DNA of 64,000 nt from a virus, in IMG/VR virus record IMGVR_UViG_3300020193_000004, positions 32,001 to 96,000 of that record; one strand, 5' to 3'. Positions 16,262 to 60,366 of this stretch are shown piece after piece (positions within the stretch are counted from its first letter, which is position 1; every line of letters begins with the position of its first letter). Made by a program: the position numbers and the translations under genes. The notes under the pieces are model-generated. The model had not been told where the DNA came from and did not search any database. It was given only the letters and a program-made list of their open reading frames with translations.

Positions 16262-16523
16262 GGTCTCACCGAAGGCCGAGCGGTACCTGGAGCGCACAGC
16301 CCGCATCCTGTCACGGGACGCGGGCCGACGCCTCAAGCCGGAGGATGTCCTCGAGCTCCTGGTGGAGCTGGCGATCGCGGACGAGGGACTCTACGACCCC
16401 GAGACCGGGGCGTCGCTCAGTAGTACACGGGCTCGGAGCCAGAGCGAGAGAGTCCGAGGCTCAGAACCTTCTGGGCGGTTCGCGCTCCAGCACCTAAGCC
16501 AACGCCTTCGGGACGAGGATTGA
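16251..16523 (+). CDS. small hypothetical (possible ribbon-helix-helix) protein
   Basis: GTG start overlapping HNH gene end; 3' end overlaps convergent polyprotein gene. Confidence 0.4.
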   Translation: MRLEVSPKAERYLERTARILSRDAGRRLKPEDVLELLVELAIADEGLYDPETGASLSSTRARSQSERVRGSEPSGRFALQHLSQRLRDED

Positions 16524-19500
16524 CCGCCTGGTCGGCGGTTCTCTTTAGGGTGGCCAGCCCCAGGCCCACTGCTCCAGTACCGAGCGCCCCGTAGCGGACC
16601 TTCTCAGGGATAGCGTTCCAGTGTGTACCGAGCTCGCGCAGGATGTCTTCCGCACCTGCCGCTTTCACCACCCCTGTGGCTGCGGGCGCAGCACCTGCCT
16701 GCACCGGACGAGACAGCTTCGGGAACTCGATGGGCTTGGTCAGCGCTCTGGCGATGCGGTTTGCCGGACGCGTAGGGTCCACCGCATACTCAGAGTGCTC
16801 CGCGAGGCCCATGGGCACCTGCACGCCGTGTGCTTTCAACACCCCCACGGACTGCCGAACATCGTCCACGCTCGGCAGTCCGTGGATCCCGCGCTCACGT
16901 GCTGCAGCACCCAGTGCCTGCGCCTGTTCGTAGTGCCCGACGACATGGGGGTCGAACGCACTCAAGATCCCCTTGCTGACGGGGTGCAGGCCGCGTTCGC
17001 CCCTGGTTCCGGCAACCAGGCCCGCATGCGCTGCCCCCTCGTAGTACGGACGGAATACCTGCTTCAGGCCTGGGATTTTCGTCCCATATCGCCCGAGGAG
17101 GTGTGCCTTGGCGATGCCTGCGGTGGCAGCCAGCGCCTCTGGAGACGCGAAGGCATAGTGCAGTATGTCGTAGAGGTTCGCCTGTTTTATTGCAGCTGCG
17201 AGCGGTAGCTTGCCGGTGAAAAGGGGTTGTCCTTCTCTCCCCGGGACCGCCTCAAGTGCAGTACGGTTCCCATAAGTCTTCACGACACCAGGCACCTTAT
17301 CAATGGTGTAACCCTGTGTCTTTCCCAGTGAACCCCACACCCGCTGAGCGGCCTCCGACACTTGTTCACCGCTCTTTAGCTCCTGATTCGGCAAGCGCCG
17401 CATGACCTCCCCATACAGCTTCTTTCCCAGACCAAACCCCTGAAACTCGTCATTGATGTGGGTACCAACGATACGACCGTTCAACGTCTCCATATAGCCG
17501 ATCGGACGCCCATTCAGATGCATAGTATGGTCGACCAACCCCGGAAGATATTCGTGCGCTTTGGACACGACCTGCACTGATCGACGCAGGCGACTCCCCG
17601 CCAGCTTCTGCCAGTTGCCGCGGAAGGGGTTGATCGGGATGTGCTTGCCCTGATCCGGGTTCAGGCGAGGGGCGGCGAGCCGCGGCTGCTTCATGCCAGG
17701 CACGCGCGGCCGCTCCCCTTCGTCTCCCACTCCAGGGAGCTCCGCGGCGAGCTTCACACTCCCTTGCTTGGCCCAAGGACTCGAGGCCACCTGCAGGGTG
17801 GGCGCCGGCGGGCGCTGCGTCGGTATCGGGGTCTGCTGCTTGCTGGCGTACGCCTTCAGCGCGATTCCCCCTGTCAGCGCACCAGCCCCAAGGAGGATCT
17901 TGCCCTTGTTCCCGGCTACGAACCCGCCAACACGATTGAGCCCGCTCCGCAGAGCACTGCCAACTCCTCCATCGGCATGCGCCGCGGTGTTCCGTACAGC
18001 CAGAGCAGTATTGGCGGTAGCCGCTTCTGCAGCGGGCGGCGGAGGCGTCACGATCCGTGCGCGCCCCTGCGCGTCGAAGTGCGGGATCCGCGCGGCCAGA
18101 TCCTTCGACCGCTGTGCAGCTACGGGGTCCACGACGGGGCGAGGGGGACGCTCCACGCCCACCCACGGGACCGTGGGGGCCTTGCCCGGGTTCTGCAGGA
18201 CGTTGTGGATCTGATGCTCCGTACGGAAGGCCAGCCGTTTCACGGCAGCGCCTTGGCGCAGGGCCTCTTCAGGAGAGCTCGCCTTCAGTGCGTCGGCCGC
18301 TCCGCGCTGCAGACGGTCGTACCGAGCGGCGATGGCCCTCTGCTTTGCCTCCTCCGAGATGGCGACCTTCTCGAGGGACGACAGCACGGCCGAGCCGACA
18401 GGCACCTCTGCGAGGTTGGACTTCCCCGCGGTCTTCTGGAGGACCCCGAACGACCTCTCTGGTACAACACGTGCTGCATGTGCATGTGCCTGTCGTGCGA
18501 ACTCTTCGGAGGACTGCCCGAAACGTGCCTTCTGCGTGACCACCACTGGCGCTGCACGGCCAACCACGTCGAGCTCGTCAGGTATCACCTCAGCGTACAT
18601 GTGACGCCCCCGCTGCCTTACACGCACGCGAGGGAACCTCCGCGCCCCTTGTTCTGTCGAGCTGTACGCAGGAGAAGCACCCGCCGACACTGAGGCACTG
18701 CTGATAGCTTCCTCTACTTCGGGACCAGCGGCCTTTCGTCCATTCTTGAAGTAGATGCCTGGGCCTTCGTTGTCCAAGGCTTGCCCGAGCAAGAAGGTGT
18801 CCCCCGGCTCAGCCCACTTCGTCCTTGCGAGCGCCGCAGGGGTAACTGCCGCTCCGAGTACTCCACCGAGCAATCCTCCAGCAAGAGCGCCGCGAGTACG
18901 GTTTTTCTTGTCAAGAGCAGCACCGGCTCCAGCACCTGCAAGTCCAAACCCGAGCCCACCAGCAATGCGTGCGCGTAGGGGCGTAGCTACGAGTCCCTCG
19001 AGGGACGACAGTACATTGGCTGCAGTCTTGGAAGAGTTCTGCGAGAACCCGAGACGGTTGAGGGCGCTGGCCCTCTGCTTTGCCTCCTCCGAGATGGCGA
19101 CCTTCTCGAGGGACGACAGCACGCCGGAGGATTTCTGTGCTCGTCGCGCATGTCCCCACAGGCCCTTCGCCAAGGCCAGCCCGACCATCCCTCCAACGAT
19201 GCCCCGCTCTACCGGCGTCCAGCCAGCGATCTTCTTGCCGTGGTTCTGGCGGTCGTGGAAGATTCCGGCCGTCTTGGGCGGGGCCTGCGGTACTGCAGGA
19301 TGTACGGCGTCCCAGAGCTTCTTGACGCCATAGCCGCCCAGGTGGTGGGCGGCGTGGAAGATTCCGGCCGTCTTGGGCGGGGCCTGCGGTACTGCAGGAT
19401 GTACGGCGTCCCAGAGCTTCTTGACGCCATAGCCGCCCAGGGCCGCGGCTCCTGTCGCCAGTGCAGCCCCACCGGCGAACCTACCAGGACGCGCACGTGC

Positions 19501-20238: not shown

Positions 20239-20241
20239 CAG

Positions 20242-20652
20242 TCAGAGCTCCCAGACGTAGTTCGGGTCCTTCAGCTTAGCCTGTACCTCACTGACGGACA
20301 TGTCGCCGATGGCCTTGTCGAGGCCTGCGTCGGTCTTTGCAGAAGTGGCGTTCATCTTCTTGGCACGCTCGAGGACCTGCTGCATGCGTTCCTTGGGATC
20401 TGCAATCGCGGGCTTCACCGTGACCTTGATGTCGGGCGTAGGCAATGCAGCCGCGAGGCTTGAGGTTCCAGTCCTCGACCGCAGGGTGTGGCGCGCAAGG
20501 AGGCCGCCACCGGCCAGCAGGCCAACGGCACCCAGGCCTGTGGCGACTGGATGCCTCTTCCAGAACGGCCGATCGCCCTCGTGCTCCTCGTCCCCGACCT
20601 TCTCGAGAGCGAGGGCGTACACGTCGTAGACTTCTGCGGCTGTTTTGAACAT
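20242..20652 (-). CDS. small KxA-motif membrane protein (136 aa)
   Basis: MFKTA...LEKVG then Gly-rich TM; AGGAG RBS. Confidence 0.65.
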   Translation of the reverse strand: MFKTAAEVYDVYALALEKVGDEEHEGDRPFWKRHPVATGLGAVGLLAGGGLLARHTLRSRTGTSSLAAALPTPDIKVTVKPAIADPKERMQQVLERAKKMNATSAKTDAGLDKAIGDMSVSEVQAKLKDPNYVWEL

Positions 20653-20661
20653 GGAGAACTC

Positions 20662-23487
20662 CTACTTCACTGAGACGGCACGGGCATTCGAGCCCACAGC
20701 GAGCCGGTGGAGCTTCTTCTCCTCCTGCTGTACCTCGAGACCGCGCAGGAGGTGGATCATCTGCTCATCCGTGAGGCGGGCAGAGCGCCTCGCACGTGCC
20801 CCAGTCGTGGAGAACTTCGGGTCCTTGTAGCTCGACCACGCGTTCATGCCTCCCAGAACACCGCCACCCAGGAGACCAATCGCCGCGGCGCGTGGCAGGG
20901 CATCCTTCATCGGAAGGCCGCTCTTCAGGCTCTGGACGGCCGCGGTGACTACCTGCGTGTAGCCTGTGATGAGCGCACCGAGTGCTCCGACCGCCAACGT
21001 CTGCTTCAGGATCTCCCTCTTGCGCTCGTCATCGGTCTTGGCCTTCGACACCAGGCCGTCTCCGCTCCCGGGCTTCGCTGCCTCCCGGTAGTAGGCTCGC
21101 AATGCCTCGACGTACTCCTGCTCACGCTCCTGCAGCTCCTTGGGGAGCACCACCTTGGTGGGGTCCACCGCCTCCTCGAGGTGAGGGGCGAACTCCTTCA
21201 TGTAGGCCTCCATGATCGGCCTGTCGGACTTCACCAGGCGGTAAGGCTGCATGGGGAGGCGCTGCGCTGCAAGGCGGCGCTCCTTCGTCTTCTGGTCCGC
21301 TGCGGTCTTGATCGCCGCCGCCTCTGGGAGGGACCCGCGGTAGGACCACGGGCGCTCCTCCCTCAGCATCTGCGCCTTGATCTCTGGAGTGAGACCCTCC
21401 CAGGGCATCCGCTGTGAGGTCCTCAGCATCCCATTGTGCTCGTACTGGTGCGACCAAGGCGCCTGCTCCACCTTCCACCCGTGGCCGCCCTTCCCCAGGG
21501 AGTTCCAAAGACGAGTGGCCTCCGGAGAGACTTGTCCGTCGCTCTTCAGGGACGCGCCAGGCATACGACGCGCAACCTCCCCGTAGAACTTCCTTCCGAG
21601 CCCGAGGTTCCGGAACTCCTTCTCGATCTCGGTACCCATGATCTGCCCATCACGGGTCACCATCCGCCCAGCGGGCTTCCCACCGACCAGGAGCGTCCAG
21701 TGTGTCCGATCTGGATGCACCGAGCTTACTTCAGAGACCACCCGAGTCATTGCACGTAGACGACTCCCTGCCATCTTGGTGGCGCCACCCCCGGCGCGAG
21801 CCGCGAGGCCGTCCTCGAGGAGGTCCAGCATGTCCTCGACGGTGTCGCAGGGAGCCTCGGCGGTCTTGTCGAGGTTGCCGCGCAGCTGCTTGTTGCGCTC
21901 GTCCTTGTTCCACGCCACCTCGTAGGCCCACTCGTCCGGCGAGCGCTCACGCTTCAGCGGGTTGTAGAAGACGGGCTGGCCCTCGAGGACGCGACTGAGC
22001 ATGCCGGACGGCGCGATCAGGTTCATCGTGTCCTTCGCGACCTGCGTCTTCGAGAGAGGGACGCGCGTGACGTAGCGACGGATGAGGACGTGCCGCTGGT
22101 CCTCGGGACGGTGCGCCTGCCCGCCGGCGCGCACGCCGCGGGCCTCGGCCTGGTGGATCTTCTCGGGGTTGAAGTGCCCGTCGACGTTGGCGACGAAGGT
22201 GGTGTTGCCCAGGTTCAGTCCCTCGCCGCCAGCGGAGGAGAGGAGGATGACCTTCTTCGTCCCCGCCTGGTAGTCGGCGACCGCCTGTGAGCGGCTCTGC
22301 TCGGTGGAGCCCGCCTGCCCCTTGCCCATGAAGATGCCGTGCGCGATGCCGCGGTCCTTCAGGCCTTGGCTGAGGACGTCGACCCCACCCTGGATCATGT
22401 TCGAGTAGATGATGACCTGCCCGTCCGGCGTCTCCTTCAGGTGCGTCTCCACGTCGTCCAGCACCCGCTTGATCTTGGGGGAGCGCTGCGCGGACTCCGC
22501 GAGCGTCACCGACTTGTTGACGGTGTGGATGGCGTTCGAGACCTGGCGCGCCTGGGTCATCTTGTTGAAGATGTTGTTGATATCGTTAGTCTTGAGCTTC
22601 GACGAGCCGAAGCGGAACTTCAGTGCCGTCACCGGGTCCATCTTCCCGACGACGTACTGGTAGAGCTCCTGCTGCTCGGGGGTCATGTCGACCTTGACCG
22701 TCTCCACGGTCTTCTTCGGCATCGCGCCGCCACCGGTCGAGGCGTCGACGTGGTGGATGTAGGGGTTCAGCAGCAGGCGCACGACGGGGGTGTTCTGGAG
22801 CTTCCCGTCCTCGGTCATGAACCGCCGCTCGAAGTTCTCCTTCGTACCGAGGTGGTGCTGCCCGTCCGTCATCGCGTCGACGAGCGGGACCAGGTCCGCC
22901 GGCGTGTTGCTCACGATCGAGCCCGTCAGCCCGATGAAGTTGCGGTGATGCTTCCGCGCCTCGCGGAGCGCCTTACCGGTGATCCCGATGTTCTTGATCT
23001 TGTGGAGCTCGTCGTAGATGACGGTGTCCGCCCCCGAGGACTTGATGTACTTCTCGGGGTTGGTGCGGAAGAGGTCGTAGCTGACGACGTGGTAGCGCGC
23101 AGACGGGTCCGGGTCGTCTACATGACGGCCCGTGCCGTTGGCGACCTCCTCGGCGTTGCCGAACACCGCGGCCTTGTCCTTCGTGAACTTGTGCACGCCC
23201 TCGTTGGTGAAGTTCTTCCGCAGGGAGGCCGGGGTCACGATGAGCGCGCGGTCGGCCATCCCGTTCTGGCGGAGACGATCGAACGCCGCGATCGCGGTGA
23301 CGGTCTTCCCGGAACCGACGGGGTGGCTCAGGATGAGGTTGCCGTTCTGCCGCACGGCCTTCTGGACGGCGTCCTCCTGGTGCGGACGGAGCTCAACGCC
23401 AGCCTGCAGGGCCGAGCCCACAGCGGCCGCGAGCTTCTGCCCCAGGTTGACGAAGATGTGGAAGCCCTGCCGCTCTCGCATGGACAT
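20662..23487 (-). CDS. SNF2/SWI2-family helicase fused to KxA-bounded GNAT-like and TM cassettes
   Basis: LRPHQ, HPVGSGKT, YDELH, LTGS, AGGEGLNL, QAEARGVR; C-terminal cassettes after LDKTA / TKMA / IKTA. Confidence 0.85.
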   Translation of the reverse strand: MSMRERQGFHIFVNLGQKLAAAVGSALQAGVELRPHQEDAVQKAVRQNGNLILSHPVGSGKTVTAIAAFDRLRQNGMADRALIVTPASLRKNFTNEGVHKFTKDKAAVFGNAEEVANGTGRHVDDPDPSARYHVVSYDLFRTNPEKYIKSSGADTVIYDELHKIKNIGITGKALREARKHHRNFIGLTGSIVSNTPADLVPLVDAMTDGQHHLGTKENFERRFMTEDGKLQNTPVVRLLLNPYIHHVDASTGGGAMPKKTVETVKVDMTPEQQELYQYVVGKMDPVTALKFRFGSSKLKTNDINNIFNKMTQARQVSNAIHTVNKSVTLAESAQRSPKIKRVLDDVETHLKETPDGQVIIYSNMIQGGVDVLSQGLKDRGIAHGIFMGKGQAGSTEQSRSQAVADYQAGTKKVILLSSAGGEGLNLGNTTFVANVDGHFNPEKIHQAEARGVRAGGQAHRPEDQRHVLIRRYVTRVPLSKTQVAKDTMNLIAPSGMLSRVLEGQPVFYNPLKRERSPDEWAYEVAWNKDERNKQLRGNLDKTAEAPCDTVEDMLDLLEDGLAARAGGGATKMAGSRLRAMTRVVSEVSSVHPDRTHWTLLVGGKPAGRMVTRDGQIMGTEIEKEFRNLGLGRKFYGEVARRMPGASLKSDGQVSPEATRLWNSLGKGGHGWKVEQAPWSHQYEHNGMLRTSQRMPWEGLTPEIKAQMLREERPWSYRGSLPEAAAIKTAADQKTKERRLAAQRLPMQPYRLVKSDRPIMEAYMKEFAPHLEEAVDPTKVVLPKELQEREQEYVEALRAYYREAAKPGSGDGLVSKAKTDDERKREILKQTLAVGALGALITGYTQVVTAAVQSLKSGLPMKDALPRAAAIGLLGGGVLGGMNAWSSYKDPKFSTTGARARRSARLTDEQMIHLLRGLEVQQEEKKLHRLAVGSNARAVSVK

Positions 23488-23499
23488 CCGGTGCTTCCC

Positions 23500-24201
23500 C
23501 TACAGACCGCTGATCAGGCCAACGACCCTGGTGGCGATCGGGAGCATCCGCTCGTACTGGATCCCGACACCTTCCTGCAGGACCGTGCCCATGGCGTCGG
23601 TCGAGAGGGAGTGGTTGGGGACGTAGCAGGCCTCGAAGTAGTAGGCGCACATCGTGTCCTCGTTACTGTCCTTCAGCATGAGGAGGATGCCAATCGGCTG
23701 CTTGAAGAGGTCGCTGGCCAGATTGAGGTAGATGTTCTCGTAGCCGGGAGGGATGACGACGTCGTGCGGGTTGGCCACCGTCGAGGCCCCGATGTTCGGG
23801 AACACGGCGGGGACGACCGTGGGCGGGACCAGGTCCTGGTAGTAGGCGTAGAGCGTCCGGAGCAGCGAGGGCCCGTGGTACATGATACGGGACAGCGAGA
23901 GGCTGCCCATCACGCGGCCAGGGATGAAGTAGCTGCGCTCGGACCCGATCTCGAAGAACCGGGCCAGCTGCATGTTGTTGCCGAGCTGGAAGCTCTGGAC
24001 CACGCCCACCGGGTAGGCGATCTGGTCGCTACTGCTGCTGCCCGCCGAGAGCGCGGCCGCGAGGAACGAAGGGCCGCCGATGTTCGCCAGACGTGGGGGA
24101 CCGGCCGCGATCAGGGTGAAGGCCGCGTTCAGAAAGCGACCGTCGACCATGCCCCCCTGTACGTACTGATCGTACGGGCTCCATTCGGAAAGCGTTGCCA
24201 T
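23500..24201 (-). CDS. putative tail tube protein
   Basis: Downstream of sheath; VGVVQSF...RFFEIGSERSYFIPG...SLSRI...YFEAC..., QEGVGIQYER tube-like pattern. Confidence 0.7.
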   Translation of the reverse strand: MATLSEWSPYDQYVQGGMVDGRFLNAAFTLIAAGPPRLANIGGPSFLAAALSAGSSSSDQIAYPVGVVQSFQLGNNMQLARFFEIGSERSYFIPGRVMGSLSLSRIMYHGPSLLRTLYAYYQDLVPPTVVPAVFPNIGASTVANPHDVVIPPGYENIYLNLASDLFKQPIGILLMLKDSNEDTMCAYYFEACYVPNHSLSTDAMGTVLQEGVGIQYERMLPIATRVVGLISGL

Positions 24202-24243
24202 CAGGTACTCCGCAGGGAGAGGAGGTGTGCGTGGTGAAAGAGT

Positions 24244-31495: not shown

Positions 31496-32378
31496 CGCGG
31501 TATCCGTACCGACCGAGTAGCCGATCCAGCTCGTCCGCGGGAGTCGAACTCGCTGCCTCGATCGTGTGTGGGTTCGTGTAGTTGCGCGACGCCGCGTGCG
31601 TGACCTCCCGGTGGTCGACCTGCAACGGAATCGCCGCCTCGATCGCACTGGGAGACAGCTGCACAGCCTGCGCCTCCTGATGCACCGAGACCCCGAGGCG
31701 GGTGGTGGCGGAGACGCTGAGCACTCGGAAACGCTGGTTCCGGTGGTCGATGATCAAGGACAGCGGGGTGATGCGCGGCGACGCCGTGGTGCGCAGGGTC
31801 AGCGTGTTCTGCTGATAGTGGTCGTACGTGGACGAGATCTCGACGGTCGGGTTCCGGTCGAACTGGATGAAGCACTCGACGGGGTAGTGGTAACCCCCCG
31901 AGAACCCAGTCCCCCAGCACACCGTGCAGGAGTCGTCCAGGCGCTTTGCGAGGGCGTCGTCCCAGCACTGCGGACAGCGCTGCCCGAAGGTGCGCCGCGG
32001 GAAGAGCCATGCCCGTGTACCGGCGAACTCGGTGAAGAGGAGATGCTCCAGACTGACGATCTCGGCGCCGATGAGGTCCAGTTCCCCCTCACGATCGGCA
32101 ACCCCGGACACGACCTCGACGCTGCGCAGCGTGTTCGCGGCCCGGATGCGGTAGATGAGCACGCGGTTGAACGCGAACTGCGGAGTCGAGTTGTCCCGCA
32201 CGTAGTAGCGGTCGATGATCGGCCCGGCGATCACATCCCACGGCCCGGCCTCGGACTCAGACCGCTCGACGAAGAACTCCCACTCCTGCATGTCGTCGTG
32301 GGTGGGCGCGATCTCCCAGTCCACGTCGAGGTACCGGCGGTCGAACCCCGTGACACGGACCTGCGTGATGGAGATCAT
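31485..32378 (-). CDS. putative neck/head-closure protein with FN3-like N-terminus and Zn finger
   Basis: W...F.VERSES..GPW; GQRCPQCWD...CTVCWGTGFSGGY; position between adaptor and terminator. Confidence 0.55.
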   Translation of the reverse strand: MISITQVRVTGFDRRYLDVDWEIAPTHDDMQEWEFFVERSESEAGPWDVIAGPIIDRYYVRDNSTPQFAFNRVLIYRIRAANTLRSVEVVSGVADREGELDLIGAEIVSLEHLLFTEFAGTRAWLFPRRTFGQRCPQCWDDALAKRLDDSCTVCWGTGFSGGYHYPVECFIQFDRNPTVEISSTYDHYQQNTLTLRTTASPRITPLSLIIDHRNQRFRVLSVSATTRLGVSVHQEAQAVQLSPSAIEAAIPLQVDHREVTHAASRNYTNPHTIEAASSTPADELDRLLGRYGYRDDA

Positions 32379-33238
32379 CGCAGCACGCGCGGTACGACTC
32401 CGGCTGCGGCCAACCCCGCGAGAATCCCGTAAGGCAGTGCCGCCACCGCTGCCGAGCGCCGAGGGTTCTCGCTGCCCTCCGCGGCAAGCTCTGCCCGCAT
32501 GTCATGGTACTTCGTCTTCAGCCGCTGGATGGCCGTGTCCTTGCTGTGCGCTGCGTGGACCTGGTGAGCTGCGCGAGCTGCCTCTTCCTTGATCTCACGA
32601 GACGACTTGCCGCTCTCACCTCGCGTGAGCTTGCTCTTCTCGTAGAGGTACCCACCAGCGGCCGCCGGTACACCCAGGAGCACCGCGCCGATGGCCGGAG
32701 CTGCAGCGGGGTGCGCACGCACGTACTCGCGAATGGCTGCACCAGCAGCCGAAGCAGCCTTGTTCTGGCCTGAGCCGCGTACAGCAAGCCCAGCGGCTCC
32801 GCCCACAGTACCCACACCAGCTCCGACTGCGCCGTGCTGAAGACCAGACACAAGGGTCCCTGCGTCGCGCAGCTCCTGTGGGTGCGCGACGCGCCCATGC
32901 TGCTTCGCGAACGCCTCGGCCGCATCACCCACCACACTCCGGGTCCTACGAGCGATCGAGGGTGCAGCGAGGTGGCCAACCGCAGCACCACCAAGTCCGC
33001 CGACGCCGGCGCCGATAGCCGCACCCTTCAGACGGTTGCCCTTCCCAGCAGTCAGGGCACCGACGCCGGCACCGACGCCGGCACCGACAAGCCCCCCGAC
33101 TACCGAGGCACGCTTCTCCATCGCCTCCTTGGCGATCTCGAACGCGGCTGCCTGCTTCCGCCCGGTGAGCTCCATCCAGAGGTCAGCGGCGGCAGCCTGC
33201 CGGGCCGCGGATGTGCGGACGTCCCAGTGCGGTTCCAT
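32375..33238 (-). CDS. glycine-zipper multi-TM KxA-motif protein (287 aa)
   Basis: EKRA / NKAA sites; GGLVGAGVGAGVGA, GAAIGAGVGGLGG zippers. Confidence 0.65.
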   Translation of the reverse strand: MEPHWDVRTSAARQAAAADLWMELTGRKQAAAFEIAKEAMEKRASVVGGLVGAGVGAGVGALTAGKGNRLKGAAIGAGVGGLGGAAVGHLAAPSIARRTRSVVGDAAEAFAKQHGRVAHPQELRDAGTLVSGLQHGAVGAGVGTVGGAAGLAVRGSGQNKAASAAGAAIREYVRAHPAAAPAIGAVLLGVPAAAGGYLYEKSKLTRGESGKSSREIKEEAARAAHQVHAAHSKDTAIQRLKTKYHDMRAELAAEGSENPRRSAAVAALPYGILAGLAAAGVVPRVLR

Positions 33239-33729
33239 CACATCAACCCGTTGAGGTAGACGCCGTTGATGACGAAGTACTCCGAAGTCGCGCCGATCCC
33301 GTCCATGGCTGCCTCCACGTTCATCGAGGACTTCATCCTGACCTTCTTGTCCTCGTAACCGGACTTGAGCATGCTCACCCACTGCATGATCATCGGCGCC
33401 TTGTCGTTCACGGAGACGGAGATCCCGCCGTCGCTAAACGAGATATGGTTCCGCATCTGCAGCATGGCGATGCTCTCCAGGAGGGAGATCGCGGCCGCCC
33501 GGCACAGCAGGTGCTTCGAGGGGAAGTTGTCGATGGTGGTCGTACCCAGGAAGGGTGGCGTCGTGTTCCAGTCATCGAGCGCGTCGACGATGGCCCACGC
33601 GATCATGCGGGGCGAGCTCTCATAGCCCTGCGTCAGTCGGTTCAACTCCGGGTAGTCGCGCATGTACTGGCGCACGTACGCGATCATCTCGTTCATCCGC
33701 GCCGACGCTGATGGGAGAGCAGTAGCCAC
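33238..33729 (-). CDS. putative head-tail adaptor protein
   Basis: Helical, VRQYMRDYPELNRL...QMRNHISFSDGGISVS; downstream of capsid. Confidence 0.6.
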   Translation of the reverse strand: MATALPSASARMNEMIAYVRQYMRDYPELNRLTQGYESSPRMIAWAIVDALDDWNTTPPFLGTTTIDNFPSKHLLCRAAAISLLESIAMLQMRNHISFSDGGISVSVNDKAPMIMQWVSMLKSGYEDKKVRMKSSMNVEAAMDGIGATSEYFVINGVYLNGLM

Positions 33730-37205: not shown

Positions 37206-37438
37206 GGAGTGGCGTCCTTCGGAGGGGTGGGGGATGCGGAACCGTTCTCGAGGCTGGAGGGGGCACGGCGACGGAGGAACTCGCCCACGCGACGCAGTCG
37301 CGCCTCCTCACTGGTCTCGGCAGATCGGTCGTCGACAGTGGCGGTCTTGGGAAAGGTCGCACATGCCTTGAACGCACGCGCACGCGTATCCTCGGACACG
37401 GAGGCACGCTTCTCGATCATGGCGACCAGTTCGCGCAT
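37202..37438 (-). CDS. small KxA-motif protein
   Basis: EKRA, PKTA; coupled to both neighbours. Confidence 0.5.
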   Translation of the reverse strand: MRELVAMIEKRASVSEDTRARAFKACATFPKTATVDDRSAETSEEARLRRVGEFLRRRAPSSLENGSASPTPPKDATP

Positions 37439-38850
37439 CAGACCGACAGCTCCTCGGCGAAGCGGATGACGTTCAGGGCGTCCTCGCCGAGCTGCCCGGC
37501 GGCGGCGAGGTCGGCGAGCGCCGCGTAGTCAGCCAGCGACGCGCGCTTCTCTTCCTGGAGGAAGGGCGAGCGTTTGGTGTCCACGTTGTACGGGGAGCCG
37601 CCCTTGTTGATGTTGACGTTGAACATGCCGCTGCCGGCAGCGCGACGCCCCTCGCGCGCAGCCACGAGGTCGGCGAGCGCGGCGTGCTCCTGCCGCATGT
37701 GCCGCTTGTTGTACAGGTGGCTCGCGACGTCGGCGTGGAGGGCCGAAGGGTCTGCCGCCTCTTCGCGGGCCAGGCGTGCACGTAGCTTGCTCAGTCCGTA
37801 CGTCGTCCCGCCCAGGAGTACGCCACCGGTCAGGGCGCCAGCGGCGGCGCCCGACAGCCCTGCGCGCCGGGCGGCCTCCAGAGCGGCCCCGCGGGCGATA
37901 CCGTGCTGGAACCCGAGCAGGGCACCAACGGCTGCTCCCGGGTAGGCGCCGACGAGGGAGCCGAGCGCGGTGTTGCCACGTCGTGCTCTGTCGGAACCCT
38001 CCGCGCGGTTCTGGAGTCCCTGACGCAGCAGGTCTTCCCGCTCGGGCGCCGACATCCCCAGAGACTCCCGCGCTGCGCGTATCTGCGTGTTCCCACGAGA
38101 CATCTGCGCTTCGCCGCCGAACCAGTCGTGCTTGGGAGGGTCGCCCGCGTCGGCCACCTTCAGCCCACCCTTGGCGGTGGCCATCGGGAAGGCCGCCTCG
38201 GCCGCCGCGCGGGAGGCACCGGTGTCATCGGCGTGGGCGAAGAGCTGCGCGAGGCGGGCGCGGGTCGGGAGCTTCGCCTCGCGCTTGGTGGCGTTGACGA
38301 TGTCCTGGACCGAGCGGAGCATCTCGATGTTCGTGTTCTCGTTCCTCGCCGGAGGTGCGGCGGCGTTCTCGCCGGACACACTCTGCTGGGGACCCGGGAT
38401 CGCACTGGTGTCCGCCCGCTTGGTGATGAGGTCGAAGAGGGTCATCGGGGCGCCGGCCTTCTTGGTGCCGGTCTGGTCCAGGGTGGCCTGGGTACCAGTC
38501 GGGGCCTCGCTCTCCGGAGGAGACTCGCCACAGGGATGGCCGGTCGGGAGGATCTTCTTCGAGCCGGACTGGGGCGGCACTGCCTGGGTTCCGGTCGGTG
38601 CCACGCTCCGGGCCGGGCCCGGGATCGCCGAAGTGTCGGCGCCCTTGAAGAACTGCTCGACCACGCTCCGGCGTACTGCCCCGGCGACGGAGCCGTCGTC
38701 GACGGCACTCATGGCGATGAACTCGTTGGCGTCTGCCAACTCGTGTGCGAGCTTCACGAGATCGCCGCCCGGGGCGGCCGCGGTCTTCGTCCCCCCGGCG
38801 GAAGCACGCGCCTTGTTGAGCGCGGCGTCGATGATGTGCTGTACCGACAT
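37438..38850 (-). CDS. KxA-punctuated head protein with glycine-zipper cassette (470 aa)
   Basis: KTA, KLA, KGA, KKA, KRA, KVA, KRA sites; duplicated ADTSAIPGP; start taken at MSVQH. Confidence 0.65.
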   Translation of the reverse strand: MSVQHIIDAALNKARASAGGTKTAAAPGGDLVKLAHELADANEFIAMSAVDDGSVAGAVRRSVVEQFFKGADTSAIPGPARSVAPTGTQAVPPQSGSKKILPTGHPCGESPPESEAPTGTQATLDQTGTKKAGAPMTLFDLITKRADTSAIPGPQQSVSGENAAAPPARNENTNIEMLRSVQDIVNATKREAKLPTRARLAQLFAHADDTGASRAAAEAAFPMATAKGGLKVADAGDPPKHDWFGGEAQMSRGNTQIRAARESLGMSAPEREDLLRQGLQNRAEGSDRARRGNTALGSLVGAYPGAAVGALLGFQHGIARGAALEAARRAGLSGAAAGALTGGVLLGGTTYGLSKLRARLAREEAADPSALHADVASHLYNKRHMRQEHAALADLVAAREGRRAAGSGMFNVNINKGGSPYNVDTKRSPFLQEEKRASLADYAALADLAAAGQLGEDALNVIRFAEELSV

Positions 38851-38860
38851 GGGTGATGCC

Positions 38861-39073
38861 TCAGGCGCTGATGTTGGGAGGTGGGAGTGAGGCCGGCGAG
38901 GTCGCCTTGATGGCCTGCGAGATGGAGGGGGTAGACCCGGCTGCCGGTTGGGATGAGGGGAACTTCCGCATCGCGTTGCCATGGGCCGCAGCACCGGCCG
39001 GGTTCCTCCCGAGTGACGCCGCGTGCTTGCGGAGCTCCTCGGAGAACGCTTCCAGCTGGGCTCTCGGCATCAC
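38861..39073 (-). CDS. small KxA-motif protein (70 aa)
   Basis: GAGGAG RBS; AFSEELRKHA motif. Confidence 0.55.
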   Translation of the reverse strand: MMPRAQLEAFSEELRKHAASLGRNPAGAAAHGNAMRKFPSSQPAAGSTPSISQAIKATSPASLPPPNISA

Positions 39074-49700: not shown

Positions 49701-49806
49701 GCTCGTAGTCCCAGGGCTCCGCGTAGTCCAGGAGCGTCGTGTCCTCGCACTCCTGCTTGACGAGGCGGAAGACGTCGAGGGGATCCTGACGATCTGAAAG
49801 ATTCAC
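46720..49806 (-). CDS. terL: terminase large subunit, intein-containing
   Basis: Walker A-like ARQVEK|ST, Walker B VALDEIQD, motif III YSGTP, RNase H-like YGGIDWG and DDSFHA. Confidence 0.9.
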   Translation of the reverse strand: MNLSDRQDPLDVFRLVKQECEDTTLLDYAEPWDYEPPTPDAADWEFSEALKEARSLLAVSPSQFVETSVMMPDAETKSLRSFDFSERPYLRRIYDTPHKRILLKCARQVEKSWVETTFLRSADGTFKQVKDVELGDELVCLKTDEAEPGVERGYGHRTTTSEVTWKSRRYQKPCVRVRTRQGHASEMATTHPVRVWAGWRDASDVRVGDRIAVVRQAGVFLAEPQPESRVRLTAFMIGDGSCAAKALRFTNASYAVLDDFDRALCDEGMSYTFQDDPRSRAVDFQLPRYSAQKLYDWFDEDGLLGTSSYTKFVPDWVFQLSREQTALFLNRLWSTDGHVKMNHATKWSIEYCSMSQRLVLQVQSLLHKFGIPSCIRENWPNIYKKRGEKKLAYILRVETQEGIRAFVREIGALDKIECQELEPWESNSNTDTYPPEVTQLVREVYAAVQPRKGDRTLRSCGIARLPPDEYCLTKDKLAQFVEFFRGDERYDQAHVDLLEAHLDSDVYWDEVQAVEDLGEQWCYDLTVADHHNCVAGAIVTHNSTTLGNRILASSCLIPHFRTLYVSPSAQQTQEFSKTRIRETLETSPDLRKWFPIHLTDNVFEKKAINRSTVTLRYAFLNADRCRGLRADLVALDEIQDILLENIPVIEEAASHSPYRYFIYSGTPKSNDNPIEHYWSNFSTQNEWGVPCERHGTPKDPGSWHWNILGELNIGKLGLICDKCGGPIDPAHPLAQWVRTGSPDPTLSVYEGYRIPQLMVPWIDWKDLYTKYNDYPRAMFFNECLGLSYDSGQRPLTAADIQINCDEQMRLLPEIVKLWREKLNGIPLYGGIDWGQDSTKSHTVMKIGGYYQGRFRVIYAYRFIGADTDIRVQMDKICRLIDTFQLARVGVDYGGGLHPNDELLRKYGSQRIVRFQYSTPSVFMKWDSQLGRYIIHRSEVMSAIFNAIKRGTVYKFPAWKDFAAPYAADMLSIFSEYNEHMHMTQYKKSSNNTDDSFHALLFLTCVSMLDTPRPDIFVPSAAIDRRLES
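48181..49473 (-). mobile_element. intein (431 aa) with LAGLIDADG homing endonuclease in terminase P-loop
   Basis: Starts Ser (SWVETT), block B TTHP, LAGLIDADG motifs AFMIGDG and RLWSTDG, ends YDLTV...VTHN before Ser(+1). Confidence 0.9.
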
Positions 49807-52398: not shown

Positions 52399-52407
52399 GA
52401 AGAGCTC

Positions 52408-53699: not shown

Positions 53700-53729
53700 G
53701 GCTACTTCCTGTACACACGCCCGGCAGGA

Positions 53730-53927
53730 TCACGCAAGCGCGCGGCCCAGCGCAATGCCTCCCACGCCCGAGATCCCGCCGATCCCGGCCCCCGTGAGGG
53801 CGCCGCGGAGGCGGTGCCCCTTCTCCTCCGTGGCGGCCCCGTACGCGGCACCGGCGAGTGCACCGAGTCCGCCGAAGGTGGCGGCCGCGCGCACCGGGTT
53901 CACTCCCGCACTGGCGGTCTTGAACAT
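53730..53927 (-). CDS. small glycine-zipper 2TM protein with N-terminal KTA
   Basis: MFKTAS..GGLGALAGAAYG..KGHRLRGALTGAGIGG; GAGGAGGT RBS. Confidence 0.65.
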   Translation of the reverse strand: MFKTASAGVNPVRAAATFGGLGALAGAAYGAATEEKGHRLRGALTGAGIGGISGVGGIALGRALA

Positions 53928-53938
53928 GGTGAACCTCC

Positions 53939-56728
53939 TCAGAGTTTGTAGGTCTTGAGCCCCTTGAGCCCGGTGATGACCTCCTCGAGGGACGTCATCG
54001 CGCGGACCGCGGCGGTCTTGGGGATGGACTGCAGGCCGAGCTGGGTAGCGAAGACCAAGCTGGCGAGCTTGCTCTGGGTCTCCTCGAGCTCGGGGATCGC
54101 GTTGACGAAGTCCTGTACGTTCTCGGCGTTGATGAAGCCGAGGGAGAGCAGGGTGTCGAGCGAGTCGACGCCGGCCAGGGCCTTCGCCTCCTTGTACAGC
54201 TCGATGGCCATGGCCTCCTTGAGGAGGCACACCGGCTTGGGCACCGGCCCCCTGGTAGTGGCGATGTCCGCCACCGCGTCGGCGAAGGCCTCCTTCACGA
54301 TGGCCGGGTCGGGCGACAGGGTGCGCAGGCCGTAGATACGTACAGGCTCCCCGGTCATGGCCGCCTTCTCCATCAGGGCGACGGAGAGGTTCTGGGGCAC
54401 ACCCGCGGCCGCGAGGTAGAAGATCGCGTCCGGCACGCCGTAGTCGCCCGAGCCGACCTTCTCGAAGACGGGGCCGGTGAGCTTCGCGCCCTGGAGCCCG
54501 CCGTAGCCGTCGGTCCAGGCGCGGATGACCGCGGAGCTGGAGAAGGAAGCAATCTTGGCGGGCATCATCGGATCGGCGCCTGCGCCCATCAGCTCGACCT
54601 GCCCGTTCAGGGGCATCCAGACGTAGTCGGCCGGCATCGCGATCTCGGTGGGGCTGGTCGCGATCGGGCGGCGGATGCCGTCGCTCGGGGTGATCTGGAC
54701 CTCCATCCCCTCCATCGTCTGCGCGGCGTAGTAGCGCACGCCCTCGACGCTCACCGCGGTCATCACCGTGAACGGGATGGTGGCGATGATGCCCTTGCCG
54801 TCGGTCTTGTAGAAGACGCCGAGGCCGCGGGGTTCGGACTGCCCGCCAGGCAGGTTGTAGCTGACGCCCACCAGCACGCCGGCGATGTCCGGCTGCAGGG
54901 CGAAGGCGCTGCCGTTGGTGAAGAGCTTGGTCGGCGTCGTCTGCCCGGTGCGCGGGTCGAAGAGCGTCGGGATGACGTAGCCGACGAGCTCGTTGCCGGT
55001 GCTGGCCTCGTGGACCTTGTAGGTACCGAAGCCCTCGACGGGCTGCACCTGCTCCTCGAGGGGGTCGGGCTCCGCCTCGACACCGGTCATCGTGGCCACG
55101 CCCTGCTGGTCGGCGGTCTGGAGGGCCTCGGGCGGGAGGGTCTGCTGGGCCTGCGCCTGCGACATCTCCTGCTGCTGGGGCTGCACGCCATCCGGCGCCG
55201 CGGCCCACTTCACCAGGTAGCCGAACTCGGTGGGGCGCACCTGCACGACGTCGAACCGGCCACGCGACGCGAGCTTCGTCGCGCCCTGGACGGTCATGCG
55301 GGTGCCTACGCCCTTCGAGGCGATCTTGTTCAGCGCGGCCATGGTCGAGGGGCAGATGGGCAGGAGGTCAGCGACCGCCGCGTCCTTGTACATCTCCTCG
55401 AAGACGGCGAAGTCGCTCGCGCGGACGGTGCCGGCGATCTTGGTCGAGAGGTTCACGGAGCTCTCCTTGACGATGAAGTCTCGAATGTGGCCGGCTGCAC
55501 GACGGAACGGAGACAGTACGCGGTCACGTGCAGCACCGACCTCCGACTTCGCCGCGCTCATACCACCTGCGACCGCGGCATGTCCTGCCTCCTGCGCCAA
55601 GGGAGTCACGTGAGGTGCCACTGCGGCAACCGCGGCGTCTGCCATGTTCTTCCCGACTTCTCGGGAGAGGGGGGCGATGTGCGGGGCCAGCGCCTTAACC
55701 GTGGCGTTGGCGTACTCGTCTCCGACCATCCTGGCGCGGGTCTTGATGAAGTCGTCCAGGTGCCCGAGAGCGGCAGGTGCGTAGTGGGCTGCTGCGCCGG
55801 CGCCGAGACCAAGCACGCCACCCTTCGCGGCACCGACGAGTGCACGGTGACGCGCGAGCTGGTTGCCGAGTTCCTTGCTGCGATCGGCGTCCTCCTTCTT
55901 CATGAGGCCGCGCTGGACAAGGTCGTCCATCCCCATGCGCCCGACGTGCTGGCGCTCACGCTCCTTGAGGTACGCCCCGATGCCCCCGAGCGTGGAGCCC
56001 CCGAGACTGGTGAGCGCGATGGTGCCGGCGGAGGCCTCCTTCTGCCGCTCCGAGTACGCATGGGGCATGTGGCCGATCACGGACTTGTGGTGCCAGTCCG
56101 GACCGTGCTGCTGCTCCAACGCACGCTGAAGAGGGCCCCAGGACCCAACGCTGTCTCCGCCGCAGTAGGCTGCGCGCATCGCGGCTTGTCCGTGCATCCA
56201 GTTCATGTAGTGCCTGTCCAGCTCGGCGCTGTGCTGCTGCAGAAACGCCTTCTCTTCGGCCGAGCCTTCCGCGTGCCGCATCAACTGCTGCTGCAACGGG
56301 TTGTACTTCTTCTCCTTCACTTCCCACACGGGGTGCAGATCCTTGGCGAACTGCTTGGCGTCGACCATGAACCGGTGCGGACGGATGTTGCGGACGTAGG
56401 GGCGTACCTGATCTTCCGGAATGCCCGAGGCGGCTGAGACCTGGGCCACGTAGGCGGAGGGGGCCTCGCTCTCCATGAGCTTCCTGGTAAGAAAGCTACC
56501 GATCCCGGCGTGCTTGTCCACCTCCGCAGAGGCCTCCTTCCCGATGTCTGGGAAGCGGGCGTGGACGGCGTCCTGGACCTGCTTCTTCTCCGCGGGTGTG
56601 CCGTGTTGCGCGACGCGGGCGAGCGCGTTGCGGGCATGAGCAAGATCGTGCACGGGGTACTTCCTCTTCTCGGGGAGGGCGAACGCCCCATCTGAGAGGC
56701 TATTCCGCTGTTGCGTTGTCAGATCCAT
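53939..56728 (-). CDS. large KxA-punctuated head protein (929 aa) with N-terminal DUF6582-like domain and cassettes
   Basis: LT...R..L...FALP..RKYPVHD..HARNALAR; ~15 KxA sites; helical C-terminal domain LSLGFINAEN. Confidence 0.65.
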   Translation of the reverse strand: MDLTTQQRNSLSDGAFALPEKRKYPVHDLAHARNALARVAQHGTPAEKKQVQDAVHARFPDIGKEASAEVDKHAGIGSFLTRKLMESEAPSAYVAQVSAASGIPEDQVRPYVRNIRPHRFMVDAKQFAKDLHPVWEVKEKKYNPLQQQLMRHAEGSAEEKAFLQQHSAELDRHYMNWMHGQAAMRAAYCGGDSVGSWGPLQRALEQQHGPDWHHKSVIGHMPHAYSERQKEASAGTIALTSLGGSTLGGIGAYLKERERQHVGRMGMDDLVQRGLMKKEDADRSKELGNQLARHRALVGAAKGGVLGLGAGAAAHYAPAALGHLDDFIKTRARMVGDEYANATVKALAPHIAPLSREVGKNMADAAVAAVAPHVTPLAQEAGHAAVAGGMSAAKSEVGAARDRVLSPFRRAAGHIRDFIVKESSVNLSTKIAGTVRASDFAVFEEMYKDAAVADLLPICPSTMAALNKIASKGVGTRMTVQGATKLASRGRFDVVQVRPTEFGYLVKWAAAPDGVQPQQQEMSQAQAQQTLPPEALQTADQQGVATMTGVEAEPDPLEEQVQPVEGFGTYKVHEASTGNELVGYVIPTLFDPRTGQTTPTKLFTNGSAFALQPDIAGVLVGVSYNLPGGQSEPRGLGVFYKTDGKGIIATIPFTVMTAVSVEGVRYYAAQTMEGMEVQITPSDGIRRPIATSPTEIAMPADYVWMPLNGQVELMGAGADPMMPAKIASFSSSAVIRAWTDGYGGLQGAKLTGPVFEKVGSGDYGVPDAIFYLAAAGVPQNLSVALMEKAAMTGEPVRIYGLRTLSPDPAIVKEAFADAVADIATTRGPVPKPVCLLKEAMAIELYKEAKALAGVDSLDTLLSLGFINAENVQDFVNAIPELEETQSKLASLVFATQLGLQSIPKTAAVRAMTSLEEVITGLKGLKTYKL

Positions 56729-57170
56729 GGGACGTCTCCAGATACGCGATCATCTTCCTCAGCAGCACGGGGCTGTCTCGGATCGACCCGAGCACCCGAT
56801 TACACCGATTGCACAGCCACCCACGAAACGTCCCGCTTGCGTGGCAGTGGTCGAACACGACCTTACCGGACTCTCCGCACAGCTCACAAGCGGCTGGACG
56901 CGGGCGCCCGGCAAGAGCCACACGCGCCGCTTCCTGCCGGGCTTTGAACTGCTGTTGCCGGCGTTGTGCTCCCTCAGGGTCGGCCGAGCGGCGGCGACGC
57001 TGCGCCTCCCGATCGAGATCTCGAACTCGTTCCTGGTTCTGCTCCCGGTGTCGATCGCGAGCAGCCCTGACTTTGTCCGGGTGGCGCTCTCGGTACCTAC
57101 GCGCTTGCTCTGCGACCTTGTCGGGATTCTGCTTCCGCCATGCCTTGACCACTGCGTAGTCGCCAGACAT
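56700..57170 (-). mobile_element. free-standing endonuclease VII-family homing endonuclease
   Basis: CELC...FDHCH.SG.FRGWLCNRCN..LG...D...L..M..YL; GGAGGT RBS. Confidence 0.88.
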
Positions 57171-57211
57171 CGACCACCTCCATAAGTCATGGAGATGATA
57201 ACCCTCGGCTC

Positions 57212-57298
57212 CGCGTCATGGATGGGGTAGCGCCGCCCAGGAAGCGCGAAGGCACCCTCACCGAGGTTGTTGCGCTGGTCCGTGGTGAGCTCGGACAT
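57212..57298 (-). pseudogene. orphaned 5' fragment (29 codons) of the downstream DUF6582-like gene start
   Basis: MSELTTDQRNNLGEGAFALPGRRYPIHDA vs MDLTTQQRNSLSDGAFALPEKRKYPVHDL; similarity stops abruptly just before the endonuclease RBS. Confidence 0.7.
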
Positions 57299-60200: not shown

Positions 60201-60366
60201 TCTCGATGTCGTACCGCGTGAGGAAGGGGTTCTCCTTCTGCAGCTCGGAGAAGATGTGCGCGGGCCACTTCTTCTCGTCGTCCGGCATACGCGAGATCGC
60301 CGACGCGACCTTCGTGGCGAAGAGGTCGTCGGAGGTCTTGAGCTGGATCAGAAGGGGTTCATGCAT
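57298..60366 (-). CDS. large KxA-punctuated polyprotein (1022 aa): globular N-domain + glycine zippers + Dps/ferritin-like + Zn ribbon + Ala/Pro-rich TM cassette
   Basis: HW...G.....H.LF..LY......D.VAER; CAYC...CSSC; cassettes bounded by KIS/KAA/KGA/KMA/KEA. Confidence 0.7.
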   Translation of the reverse strand: MHEPLLIQLKTSDDLFATKVASAISRMPDDEKKWPAHIFSELQKENPFLTRYDIEIVLDRMDPEAGGALGYAQVQNRTMSRPQDNLPNAGNVLRIPIVVENRRLQKFYIFEAGGQVYPLTEERIQQAMLNPAIFDTDATSMPSSPGLLDSLYPPYQQRNGFGRVTEPAMGLNKISAAPIPLAGAATKVGGPALVGTPRLVGSMTREELLAEKERVEQQLASRTATLPGAAGGALGMGIASHFGPRLGAADLPIALGSMALGAAAGHYGFRSGLKSRLGRIEERLREAGPEKAAEHTPTPVPDAVASSLAPVLSTLFALHQLYYFAHWTSQGEASYSDHQLFTRLYEGVREEFDSVAERIVGHGGNQSLDPGTIFAEASARSQQWMQGAGSIFEAALIAEGELQATLFEAYSSLDQGGGLSLGIDDLLMGIASTHETNQYLLKQRDPSAAAPPAATQEQPVPQIADAMQPAPTAPDPQTVPAAQPMPMSPAMPAGEKGAAVFGASHPGRDYLASAAVSQGDREKAVIDYGRKKAKEKQTDLGTALTTGGGVGGGLGLLTGALAGMHGGRGHGLRGAALGAVVGGLGGALIGGGMKASDDAAIAKWKRVNTAGPAAERDEAHQAIRHAIEGVAGEERRHRHALQAAVISNALRPARTEHHHYGDRSSSSSSPAAPQKYKCAYCGTGTVGNTGHCSSCGAPMSEASKMASIRAFFVKEALTGAELQAREAARRAAQAPAVAVENSQRLAPAQLARAQQAQAAQEAQAAAQHNAAQEARRAQVSRAVNEWGEHVKKNPSPAHINTGQDIAAAYDGHWTAEPTAPRPAAPTPAAATPQISHAPAVQQAADAGAAQVRRGKTVISARELTGSAKELRAHAAAAAAAGDADKAQRLNRVADRYQKLQDRVHSRQPAATPQISDVAPAAPSAPAAAPPKPVPPPAAPVHTPAPVHTPVPAAAASHAAPVVAEAAHAAAPAAGGFARHLTRRNAVLGAGVAAAGAAGALGIRHFLKKRNPEPAPQPTLGGR

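Follow-up and report, generated by a model that had tools for sequence, protein, structure and literature searches.

Lys-x-Ala as a putative prohead-protease cleavage code and module joint in the late region of a 115-kb phage

Is a short motif that recurs in the head genes of a phage the recognition site of its prohead protease, and do the same sites serve as joints between exchangeable protein modules? The question is raised by 64,000 nucleotides of viral DNA (bases 32001 to 96000 of IMG/VR record IMGVR_UViG_3300020193_000004, a single 115,144-bp contig with a GC content of 64 to 69%); this whole stretch is called the window here. Among its genes are those for an intein-containing large terminase, the major capsid protein, tail proteins, and a tail fiber, and it is the late region of a 115-kb phage of which Salmonella phage Arash is a distant relative. 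The original prediction was that about a dozen open reading frames (ORFs) between 16417 and 60366 are punctuated by K-x-A or K-x-G, usually followed by a small residue, at boundaries between unrelated modules, and that the protease encoded at 40691 to 42601 cuts there, releasing packaged modules for injection. We observed enrichment of K-x-A, conservation of the motif, a modelled protease fold, and gain and loss of cassettes at the motif, and from these we infer cleavage, its scissile bond, and the packaging and injection of modules. On balance, we favor the reading that K-x-A is at once a cleavage code and a joint for module shuffling.

The protease encoded at 40691 to 42601

Genes were called with a codon-usage model and are named here by their first coordinate in the window (Table 1). 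Pfam has no family for the product of 40691, which has no sequence-level similarity to T4 gp21, and searches of Protein Data Bank chains with the single sequence or with two profiles gave nothing useful. An exhaustive profile search places 3120 representative clusters in its family. PHROG 18299 ("head maturation protease") matches the window protein with an E value of 9.4e-5 and matches 36 of 57 diverse family members, the best at 1.5e-12. With these 57 members as the alignment, an AlphaFold2 model of residues 1 to 300 has a predicted local distance difference test score (pLDDT) of 88.7; with an alignment of only 14 close orthologues the pLDDT is 40.5. In a structural search (VIA), T4 gp21 (5jbl) came first, with a Z score of 9.0 and a root mean square deviation of 3.1 over 133 aligned residues, followed by the proteases of varicella-zoster virus (1vzv, Z 7.8) and human cytomegalovirus (HCMV) (8j3s, Z 6.1), while unrelated chains scored 4.2 or less. 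The top Foldseek matches are all herpesvirus proteases or gp21, with individual E values of 7e-3 or weaker. Residues H138, S194, D81, D202, D252, and S254 are invariant in the alignment of the 57 members, and H138 and S194, 56 residues apart, stand in the His-then-Ser order of this protease class, as read from the alignment alone. The protease and capsid genes share a strand, with the protease gene 4.5 kb upstream. Based on the modelled fold, the structural matches, and PHROG 18299, we conclude that the product of 40691 is a prohead protease, as had been proposed, with the fold shared by T4 gp21 and the herpesvirus assemblins and probably of the serine type.

The protease itself carries K-x-A at residues 10, 37, 425, and 618, and relatives have another site at about residue 297. 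K37, K425, and K618 are kept in all 16 orthologues, and K37 is nearly invariant across the family. In the model, the catalytic domain is flanked by two linkers of low confidence, one with K37 and the other with the position of the ~297 site. Cleavage at these sites would free the catalytic domain and clip a 16-residue C-terminal tail, a layout that recalls the autoprocessing of T4 gp21 and SPN3US gp245 (PMC10052503) and also, in herpesviruses, the protease-scaffold fusion with its R and M sites (PMC8537868). In a set of 137 diverse family members, K-x-A occurs 1403 times, compared with 632 expected (z 30.7); Ser is the commonest next residue, and the first site falls mostly at residues 28 to 33 or 3 to 5.

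Family members vary in architecture. Several homologues bear inteins (Hint_2, LAGLIDADG_3, and Intein_splicing in forms of ~1000 residues), and other members are 450 to 1500 residues long. Single members have an extra C-terminal domain, which is an inorganic pyrophosphatase (Pfam InPase) in one instance and, in further single members, matches PHROGs for endolysin, DNA methyltransferase, a DarB-like protein, or a minor head protein. Because of these single members, cargo-type domains may be fused to the protease in other phages.

The Lys-x-Ala motif in capsid and scaffold/core-like proteins

K-x-A was counted in each protein and compared with composition-matched shuffles of each gene. Six of 95 genes have p<0.01, and three of these pass Bonferroni correction. 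The observed and expected counts are 4 and 0.9 for 36822, 12 and 4.7 for 39081, 11 and 2.1 for 43870, and 15 and 6.9 for 53939, with weaker signals in 37438 (7 and 3.4) and the protease gene 40691 (4 and 1.2). A gene outside the window, beside the portal gene (genome positions 108860 to 110401), has 12 sites where 2.5 are expected. The seven most enriched proteins, which are of scaffold/core type, together contain 65 sites versus 21.8 expected, and 45% of their lysines are in the motif. When all residue pairs at spacings 0 to 3 were scanned, K-x-A topped the head set (102 observed, 50.9 expected, z 7.2), and K-x-x-S was third. The other 82 genes of the genome have 92 K-x-A, where 94.1 are expected.

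The residue that follows Ala is also biased in the head set, to Ser (29 sites), Ala (18), Gly (16), Glu (10), and Asp (7), which together account for 80 of 107 sites, while in genes beyond the head set the distribution is flat. The prediction of a small following residue thus held, and among the ORFs listed in it the K-x-A signal was borne out for 36822, 37438, 39081, 40691, 43870, and 53939. It was not borne out for 16417, 20242, 20662, 42601, or 57298, and K-x-G has to be dropped from the motif, with 8 occurrences versus 11.7 expected in one set and 9 versus 21.1 in the other. Among the ORFs on the list, 53730 is not a gene but a spurious frame (GC at third codon positions, 0.51).

One tail gene also scores highly. 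The tail-fiber gene 61530 to 62873 (minus strand) encodes 11 K-x-A where 4.7 are expected, all of them in copies of the repeat unit T-K-I-A-N-G-A-V..G-K-Y-A-A-G-S-I. Since the sites are part of this internal fiber repeat, we rejected the protein as a substrate, and it is an example of a false positive for motif-based substrate prediction.

For comparison with relatives, viral contigs were scanned with the capsid protein, which gave 35 related loci with 38 to 94% identity. Orthologues in these loci are enriched in K-x-A 4.7-fold for 36822 (93 observed, 19.7 expected), 3.9-fold for 43870 (195 observed, 50.4 expected), 2.7-fold for the protease, 2.0-fold for 39081, 1.8-fold for 37438, and 1.7-fold for the capsid protein; the values for neck and tail proteins are 0.35- to 1.66-fold. 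Individual sites are kept as alignment columns despite variable flanks: site 135 of 43870 is present in 19 of 19 sequences with a flank identity of 0.21. All four sites of 36822 are kept in 14 to 18 of 18 sequences, sites 70, 81, 178, and 279 of 37438 in 5 of 5, and sites 21, 30, 71, 86, and 142 of 39081 in 6 of 6, and 11 of the 12 sites of 39081 are followed by S, A, G, D, or E. The three K-x-A of 42601 are clustered at its N terminus, a candidate propeptide, and sites 27 and 36 are kept in three of four orthologues.

The capsid protein has K-T-A at residues 27 to 29 (window positions 36085 to 36093). K-x-A is present at this column in all but one of 25 distinct orthologues, whose identity falls as low as 38%, and the Arash capsid protein has K-E-A at the same place. 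The cultured relatives that we found are all distant (Salmonella phage Arash, three Vibrio phages, and, for the protease only, gp19 of Bacillus phage G), and identity to Arash is 25.6% for the capsid protein and 31% for the protease region. In the head genes of Arash (gp218 to gp226), a low-GC phage, K-x-A is again the top pair, with 46 observed and 21.0 expected, and its capsid protein and protease homologue have sites near residues 27 and 30, respectively.

The C-terminal ends show a second regularity. In 40691, 36822, 37438, 39081, and 53939 a K-x-A lies 16 to 36 residues from the C terminus (K618 of the protease at 16, several scaffold-like proteins at 29 to 36) and is followed by a partly hydrophobic tail. 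This layout resembles the M site of herpesviruses, which frees the capsid-binding tail of the scaffold.

Based on conservation of K-x-A at the capsid N terminus, in scaffold-like proteins, and around the catalytic domain, the motif behaves as a protease recognition motif, as predicted. We consider it probable that K-x-A followed by a small or acidic residue is the recognition code of the protease. The cut is probably after Ala, by analogy, since Ala/Ser is the bond cut by herpesvirus assemblins. On the simplest account, the primary putative substrates are the capsid protein, the scaffold/core proteins, and the enzyme itself. Inside the prohead, the protease would remove a predicted 29-residue N-terminal propeptide from the capsid protein and would reduce the scaffold/core-like proteins 36822, 37438, 39081, and 43870, as well as the 53939 core, to short fragments. 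In the literature searched, coverage of which is incomplete, we found no description of a K-x-A phage protease motif.

Module-chain proteins and cassette gain and loss

The joints between modules are where the window adds most, and comparison of cassettes among relatives gives the strongest new evidence. The SNF2 protein 20662 shares 30% identity with Arash gp217. It begins with a leader of 20 residues, the last three of which are K-L-A, and has a C-terminal glycine-zipper tail. Its residues 571 to 729 are 42% identical (E 3e-25) to residues 878 to 1020 of 16417, with unrelated flanks on both sides; the alignment begins with K-x-A-G-S-R-L-R and ends with A-A-A-I-K-x-A. In the closest relatives (L037 to L039, ~80% identical in the SNF2 protein), this GNAT-like cassette is absent from the SNF2 protein, and a single K-E-A stands in its place. 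L037 has the cassette elsewhere, in its orthologue of 16417 and again between K-x-A sites, while L038 has none. Both ends of the cassette thus carry K-x-A in three contexts. The leader site of the SNF2 protein is likewise kept, as K-L-A ahead of the helicase core in relatives and as K-Y-A in a 39%-identical homologue.

The 16417 protein itself varies between close relatives. Residues 883 to 1191 are absent from the L037 and L038 orthologues, with junctions at K-L-A 878 and K-A-A 1192, and these orthologues carry different modules from those of the window protein. In place of the ART-like region they have a 140-residue module bounded by K-x-A (L037:11666-13939 and L038:10411-12471), of which the window protein keeps only the last 12 residues, ending in K-K-I-A. 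Five of the seven block borders in 16417 fall within 3 residues of a K-x-A, and ~8% of positions are that close. The gene also contains a 99-nucleotide tandem repeat (93% identical, 19237 to 19434) and a 67-nucleotide dispersed repeat (96% identical, 18328 to 18394 and 19063 to 19129), both of which encode K-x-A-containing linkers, so that near-exact repeats spanning the linkers offer a substrate for recombination. A similarity between residues 491 to 815 of 16417 and 733 to 1019 of 57298 was rejected as a low-complexity artefact, since it disappears with composition-based statistics.

In 53939, the N-terminal extension meets the core at K-I-A 430 to 432. The orthologue in L044 is only 506 residues long and begins with an 8-residue leader ending in K-L-A, which aligns with residues 425 to 432, and it keeps 11 of the 12 K-x-A sites of the shared core. 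The N terminus of 53939 matches PHROG 16160/DUF6582. A small ORF at 56759 to 57298 (minus strand) repeats this PHROG 16160/DUF6582-like N terminus in its first 28 residues with 67% identity; the codon-position GC of the remainder is atypical, and the ORF may be a decayed duplicate of a leader module. The fourth variable protein, 57298, has an orthologue of 577 residues in L044 and has 7 K-x-A versus 6.5 expected. K-x-A occurs within residues 3 to 19 of 16417, 20242, 20662, 39081, 42601, and 57298, and 20662 and 57298 are contiguous with tail genes on the same strand.

These comparisons, which were suggested with the original prediction, revealed gain and loss of cassettes at K-x-A sites between close relatives, and the placement of sites at module boundaries held for the GNAT-like cassette, 16417, and 53939. 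The module names fared less evenly. SNF2 is solid, the ferritin-like domain of 57298 passes its Pfam cutoff, and GNAT-like is moderately supported: by its Atlas features the cassette groups with viral GNAT clusters (0.94), its Pfam scores are sub-threshold, and a three-cassette profile reached only E 0.35 to 0.43 against acetyltransferase structures. ART-like, Zn-ribbon, and glycine-zipper are weak leads; for the ART-like module, the scores for PARP (E 0.3) and in Atlas (0.85) are both under the reliable range, and the Atlas lead includes ART-PolyVal clusters. Pfam scans of the multi-module proteins, whole or by segment, detected no peptidase domain, although a divergent one is possible.

Because the same motif sits at the joints of the multi-module proteins 16417, 20662, 53939, and 57298, we judge it reasonably likely that their modules are exchangeable in evolution. 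Recombination between conserved, motif-containing linkers could move cassettes among sites, and the product would stay processable. We suggest more tentatively, by analogy with known delivery systems, that the chains of modules enter the capsid, are separated inside it, and are delivered with the DNA. Such delivery would be modelled on the internal proteins and Alt of T4, the ejection proteins of phiKZ and SPN3US, and polyvalent proteins. The sole outside support for virion loading is the detection of the SNF2 homologue gp217 and RNA polymerase subunits in Arash virions, and that proteome, which lists 116 proteins, is poorly discriminating (PMC10585845). The same paper gives no cleavage or N-terminal data (PMC10585845).

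The alternative that survives best denies the large module chains a role as cargo of the capsid. K-x-A would then serve as a prohead-protease site only in classical substrates (capsid protein, scaffold/core proteins, protease); 16417, 20242, 20662, and 57298 would encode ordinary late or polyvalent proteins that act uncut in the cell or travel otherwise, and their K-x-A would be chance or a recombination-favoring linker. Several results pull in this direction and weigh against processing and delivery of the chains. Genes 16417, 20242, 20662, 42601, and 57298 have no overall enrichment (37 versus 29.1 when the capsid protein is included), and what supports them is positional only, namely a K-x-A no further in than residue 20 and others at the borders of cassettes; a chance N-terminal K-x-A is not very rare. 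Some sites fall within folded domains (K105, SNF2 core), and K604 of the GNAT-like cassette is not kept between cassette copies; K105 and K604 are probably chance sites. In 57298, one of four variable loci tested, only one of four block borders is at K-x-A, and in 16417 the repeated linker DNA alone could explain shuffling. The RNA-polymerase-like genes beside the portal gene have no leader K-x-A. No capsid-targeting sequence is shared, since the leaders inspected have nothing in common beyond K-x-A, and domain names beyond SNF2 and ferritin-like have weak scores. In contrast, this alternative does not account for the conservation of the leader site as K-L-A or K-Y-A, for K-x-A at both ends of the GNAT-like cassette in three independent contexts, for the five of seven borders of 16417 close to a site, or for the presence of the Arash helicase homologue in virions. 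We consider it unlikely.

Far less probable is a structural or interaction role, in which K-x-A would set helix register or make shell contacts in helical, Ala/Lys-rich scaffold proteins and would be inherited and over-counted. The enriched proteins are indeed Ala-rich and probably helical, and related sequences share sites by descent. However, enrichment in the head set is confined to the i, i+2 spacing: the counts of K-A, K-x-x-A, and K-x-x-x-A do not exceed expectation. R-x-A, K-x-G, and other spacings were tried as parts of the motif and rejected, since none is enriched, and K-x-S is not enriched either. A structural role is also hard to reconcile with the bias of the next residue to Ser, Ala, and Gly, with the conservation of sites where flanks vary, and with their positions in the capsid N terminus, the linkers that flank the protease, very short M-x-K-x-A leaders, and cassette joints. 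The last possibility, an artefact of chance or composition in an Ala-rich, high-GC genome with many spurious ORFs (the listed 53730 among them), is effectively refuted by the composition-matched shuffles of each gene, by the absence of the effect in the other 82 genes, and by its presence in low-GC Arash and in the 137 diverse family members.

Related systems, wider implications, and neighboring genes

Compared with T4, the reading of K-x-A as a protease code and module joint describes a familiar arrangement with a different specificity. The protease has the modelled fold of gp21, its gene lies among scaffold and capsid genes, and the putative cuts fall, as in T4, at a three-residue motif in the capsid N terminus, at multiple places in scaffold-like proteins, in the protease, and in the leaders of accessory proteins. 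In T4, gp21 acts on gp23, the scaffold protein gp22, the internal proteins IPI to IPIII, and Alt, and a capsid-targeting sequence belongs to that system. The T4 motif is (L/I)-x-Glu, with cleavage after Glu (reviewed in PMC9026906 and PMC5694885), whereas the motif here is Lys-x-Ala plus a small residue. T4 cargo is encoded in single-module genes, while several modules are chained per ORF here, and the protease differs from gp21 in its length of 636 residues, its Cys-rich insert, and its long C-terminal extension.

In the giant phages, phiKZ gp175 and SPN3US gp245 process many head-internal proteins, including ejected enzymes and the virion RNA polymerase, at a short motif; long propeptides undergo several cuts, and the enzyme also processes itself (PMC10052503). 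The clade studied here likewise has RNA-polymerase beta-like genes beside the portal gene. In contrast, the motif of phiKZ and SPN3US ends in Glu (S/A/G-x-E or A-x-E), and their cuts mostly remove N-terminal propeptides and do not separate chained, unrelated modules.

The herpesvirus assemblins are alike in fold and in layout (the protease domain is followed by a site and then by a long extension, with a further site 16 to 36 residues from the C terminus), and in specificity they appear, by analogy, to resemble the window protease, with Ala before a small residue that is mostly Ser. Their consensus is V/L/I-x-A followed by S, with the cut between Ala and Ser. An HCMV protease substrate, for example, contains ..Asn-Ala-Ser-Ser.. 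(PMC13486704). The window protease differs in that the third residue before the putative cut is Lys and not hydrophobic, and in its bacterial host.

The polyvalent proteins of phages and conjugative elements, described by Iyer et al. in 2017, are multi-domain proteins (with SNF2 helicases, GNATs, ARTs, and other effectors) encoded with late or structural genes; their capsid packaging and delivery with DNA, and their processing by embedded metallopeptidases, have been proposed (PMC5512222). In the same structural-gene context, 20662 combines SNF2 with a GNAT-like cassette, and 57298 combines a ferritin-like domain with other segments. The difference is that we detected no embedded peptidase; what marks the joints is the putative recognition motif of the capsid maturation protease, and processing would accordingly take place in trans, within the prohead.

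Should K-x-A prove to be the cleavage code, mature ends and head-internal substrates could be read from sequence in thousands of uncultured phages and in Arash. The gp21/assemblin-fold proteases would then have a second specificity class, one that resembles the herpesvirus Ala/Ser rule, and the processing of multi-enzyme polyvalent phage proteins that lack their own peptidase would be explained. The cassette comparisons offer a concrete, testable case of domain shuffling at putative protease sites, with a bearing on the diversification of injected counter-defence enzymes in phages and on the engineering of capsid-loaded cargo. A wider proposal, which we regard as speculative and somewhat weaker than capsid loading itself, is that a large clade of tailed phages, in which Arash-like and phage-G-like phages stand beside thousands of metagenomic lineages, has a Lys-x-Ala code, read by an assemblin-fold protease and cut before Ser, for two jobs, capsid maturation and a universal in-frame joint, with any module between two joints co-translated, loaded, freed, and delivered. 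The site of cleavage would then also be the unit of recombination in a plug-in effector platform, and the Ala/Ser specificity would tie phage and herpesvirus proteases closer together than the Glu specificity of T4 does.

Some gene calls needed correction. The true start of 37438 is probably an internal Met near residue 48, and that of 32375 is probably Met49, at 33238. By codon-position GC, 32375 had appeared to be a dubious ORF; this was overturned by conservation of its frame in L001, L002, and L021 (41% identity over 346 residues), which indicates a real gene.

Table 1. Features of the window, with window coordinates (aa, amino acids)
Feature	Coordinates	Strand	Basis or remarks
Multi-module protein, 1273 aa	16417..20238	-	ART-like lead module aa 18-186; glycine zippers
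GNAT-like cassette of 16417	aa 881-1020 (17179-17598)	-	Homology from K-x-A to K-x-A
136-aa protein	20242..20652	-	Segment map; starts M-F-K-T-A; glycine-zipper segment
SNF2-family helicase, 941 aa	20662..23487	-	Pfam SNF2-rel_dom/Helicase_C
GNAT-like cassette of 20662	aa 574-729 (21301-21768)	-	Homology to 16417 cassette
Glycine-zipper protein	32375..33382	-	K-x-A sites grouped near N terminus
Major capsid protein, 387 aa	35008..36171	-	Homologue of annotated Arash major capsid protein gp226
Small scaffold-like protein, 127 aa	36822..37205	-	Four K-x-A-S/G sites (aa 26, 40, 71, 89)
Head-module protein	37438..38994	-	7 K-x-A sites
Head-module scaffold/core-like protein, 501 aa	39081..40586	-	12 K-x-A sites, p 0.0004
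Prohead protease, 636 aa	40691..42601	-	Fold model, PHROG 18299, family profile
Catalytic domain of protease, modelled gp21/assemblin fold	~aa 45-290 (41732-42469)	-	Followed by C-terminal extension
Head-module protein, 335 aa	42601..43608	-	Three K-x-A (11, 27, 36) in first 38 residues
Head-module protein, 319 aa	43870..44829	-	11 K-x-A sites, p 0.0002; most enriched gene in window
Spurious frame, not a gene	53730..55208	-	Overlaps 53939-56728; codon-position GC 0.92/0.65/0.51 versus 0.67/0.46/0.89 in the real frame
929-aa protein	53939..56728	-	424-aa N-terminal extension (three modules) and 505-aa K-x-A-rich core (aa 425-929)
Multi-module protein, 1022 aa	57298..60366	-	Leader K-V-A at aa 19; glycine-zipper and Cys-rich segments
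Ferritin-like domain of 57298	aa 312-410	-	PF00210, 27.8 bits, passes Pfam cutoff as segment

The late operon continues just past the right end of the window. Genome positions 97213 to 107476 (window coordinates 65213 to 75476) encode two proteins of ~1070 residues, homologues of the RNA polymerase beta-type proteins gp206 and gp216 of Arash, and the gene for a 712-residue portal protein, a homologue of Arash gp204, adjoins them. The polymerase proteins gp206 and gp216 are among the most abundant in the Arash virion (PMC10585845), and this abundance suggests a virion RNA polymerase in this clade. Within the window, the large terminase (46720 to 49806, minus strand, 1028 residues) bears an intein, with Pfam matches to Intein_splicing (residues 164 to 542) and LAGLIDADG_3 (residues 324 to 411), which precedes the GpA-type ATPase region.

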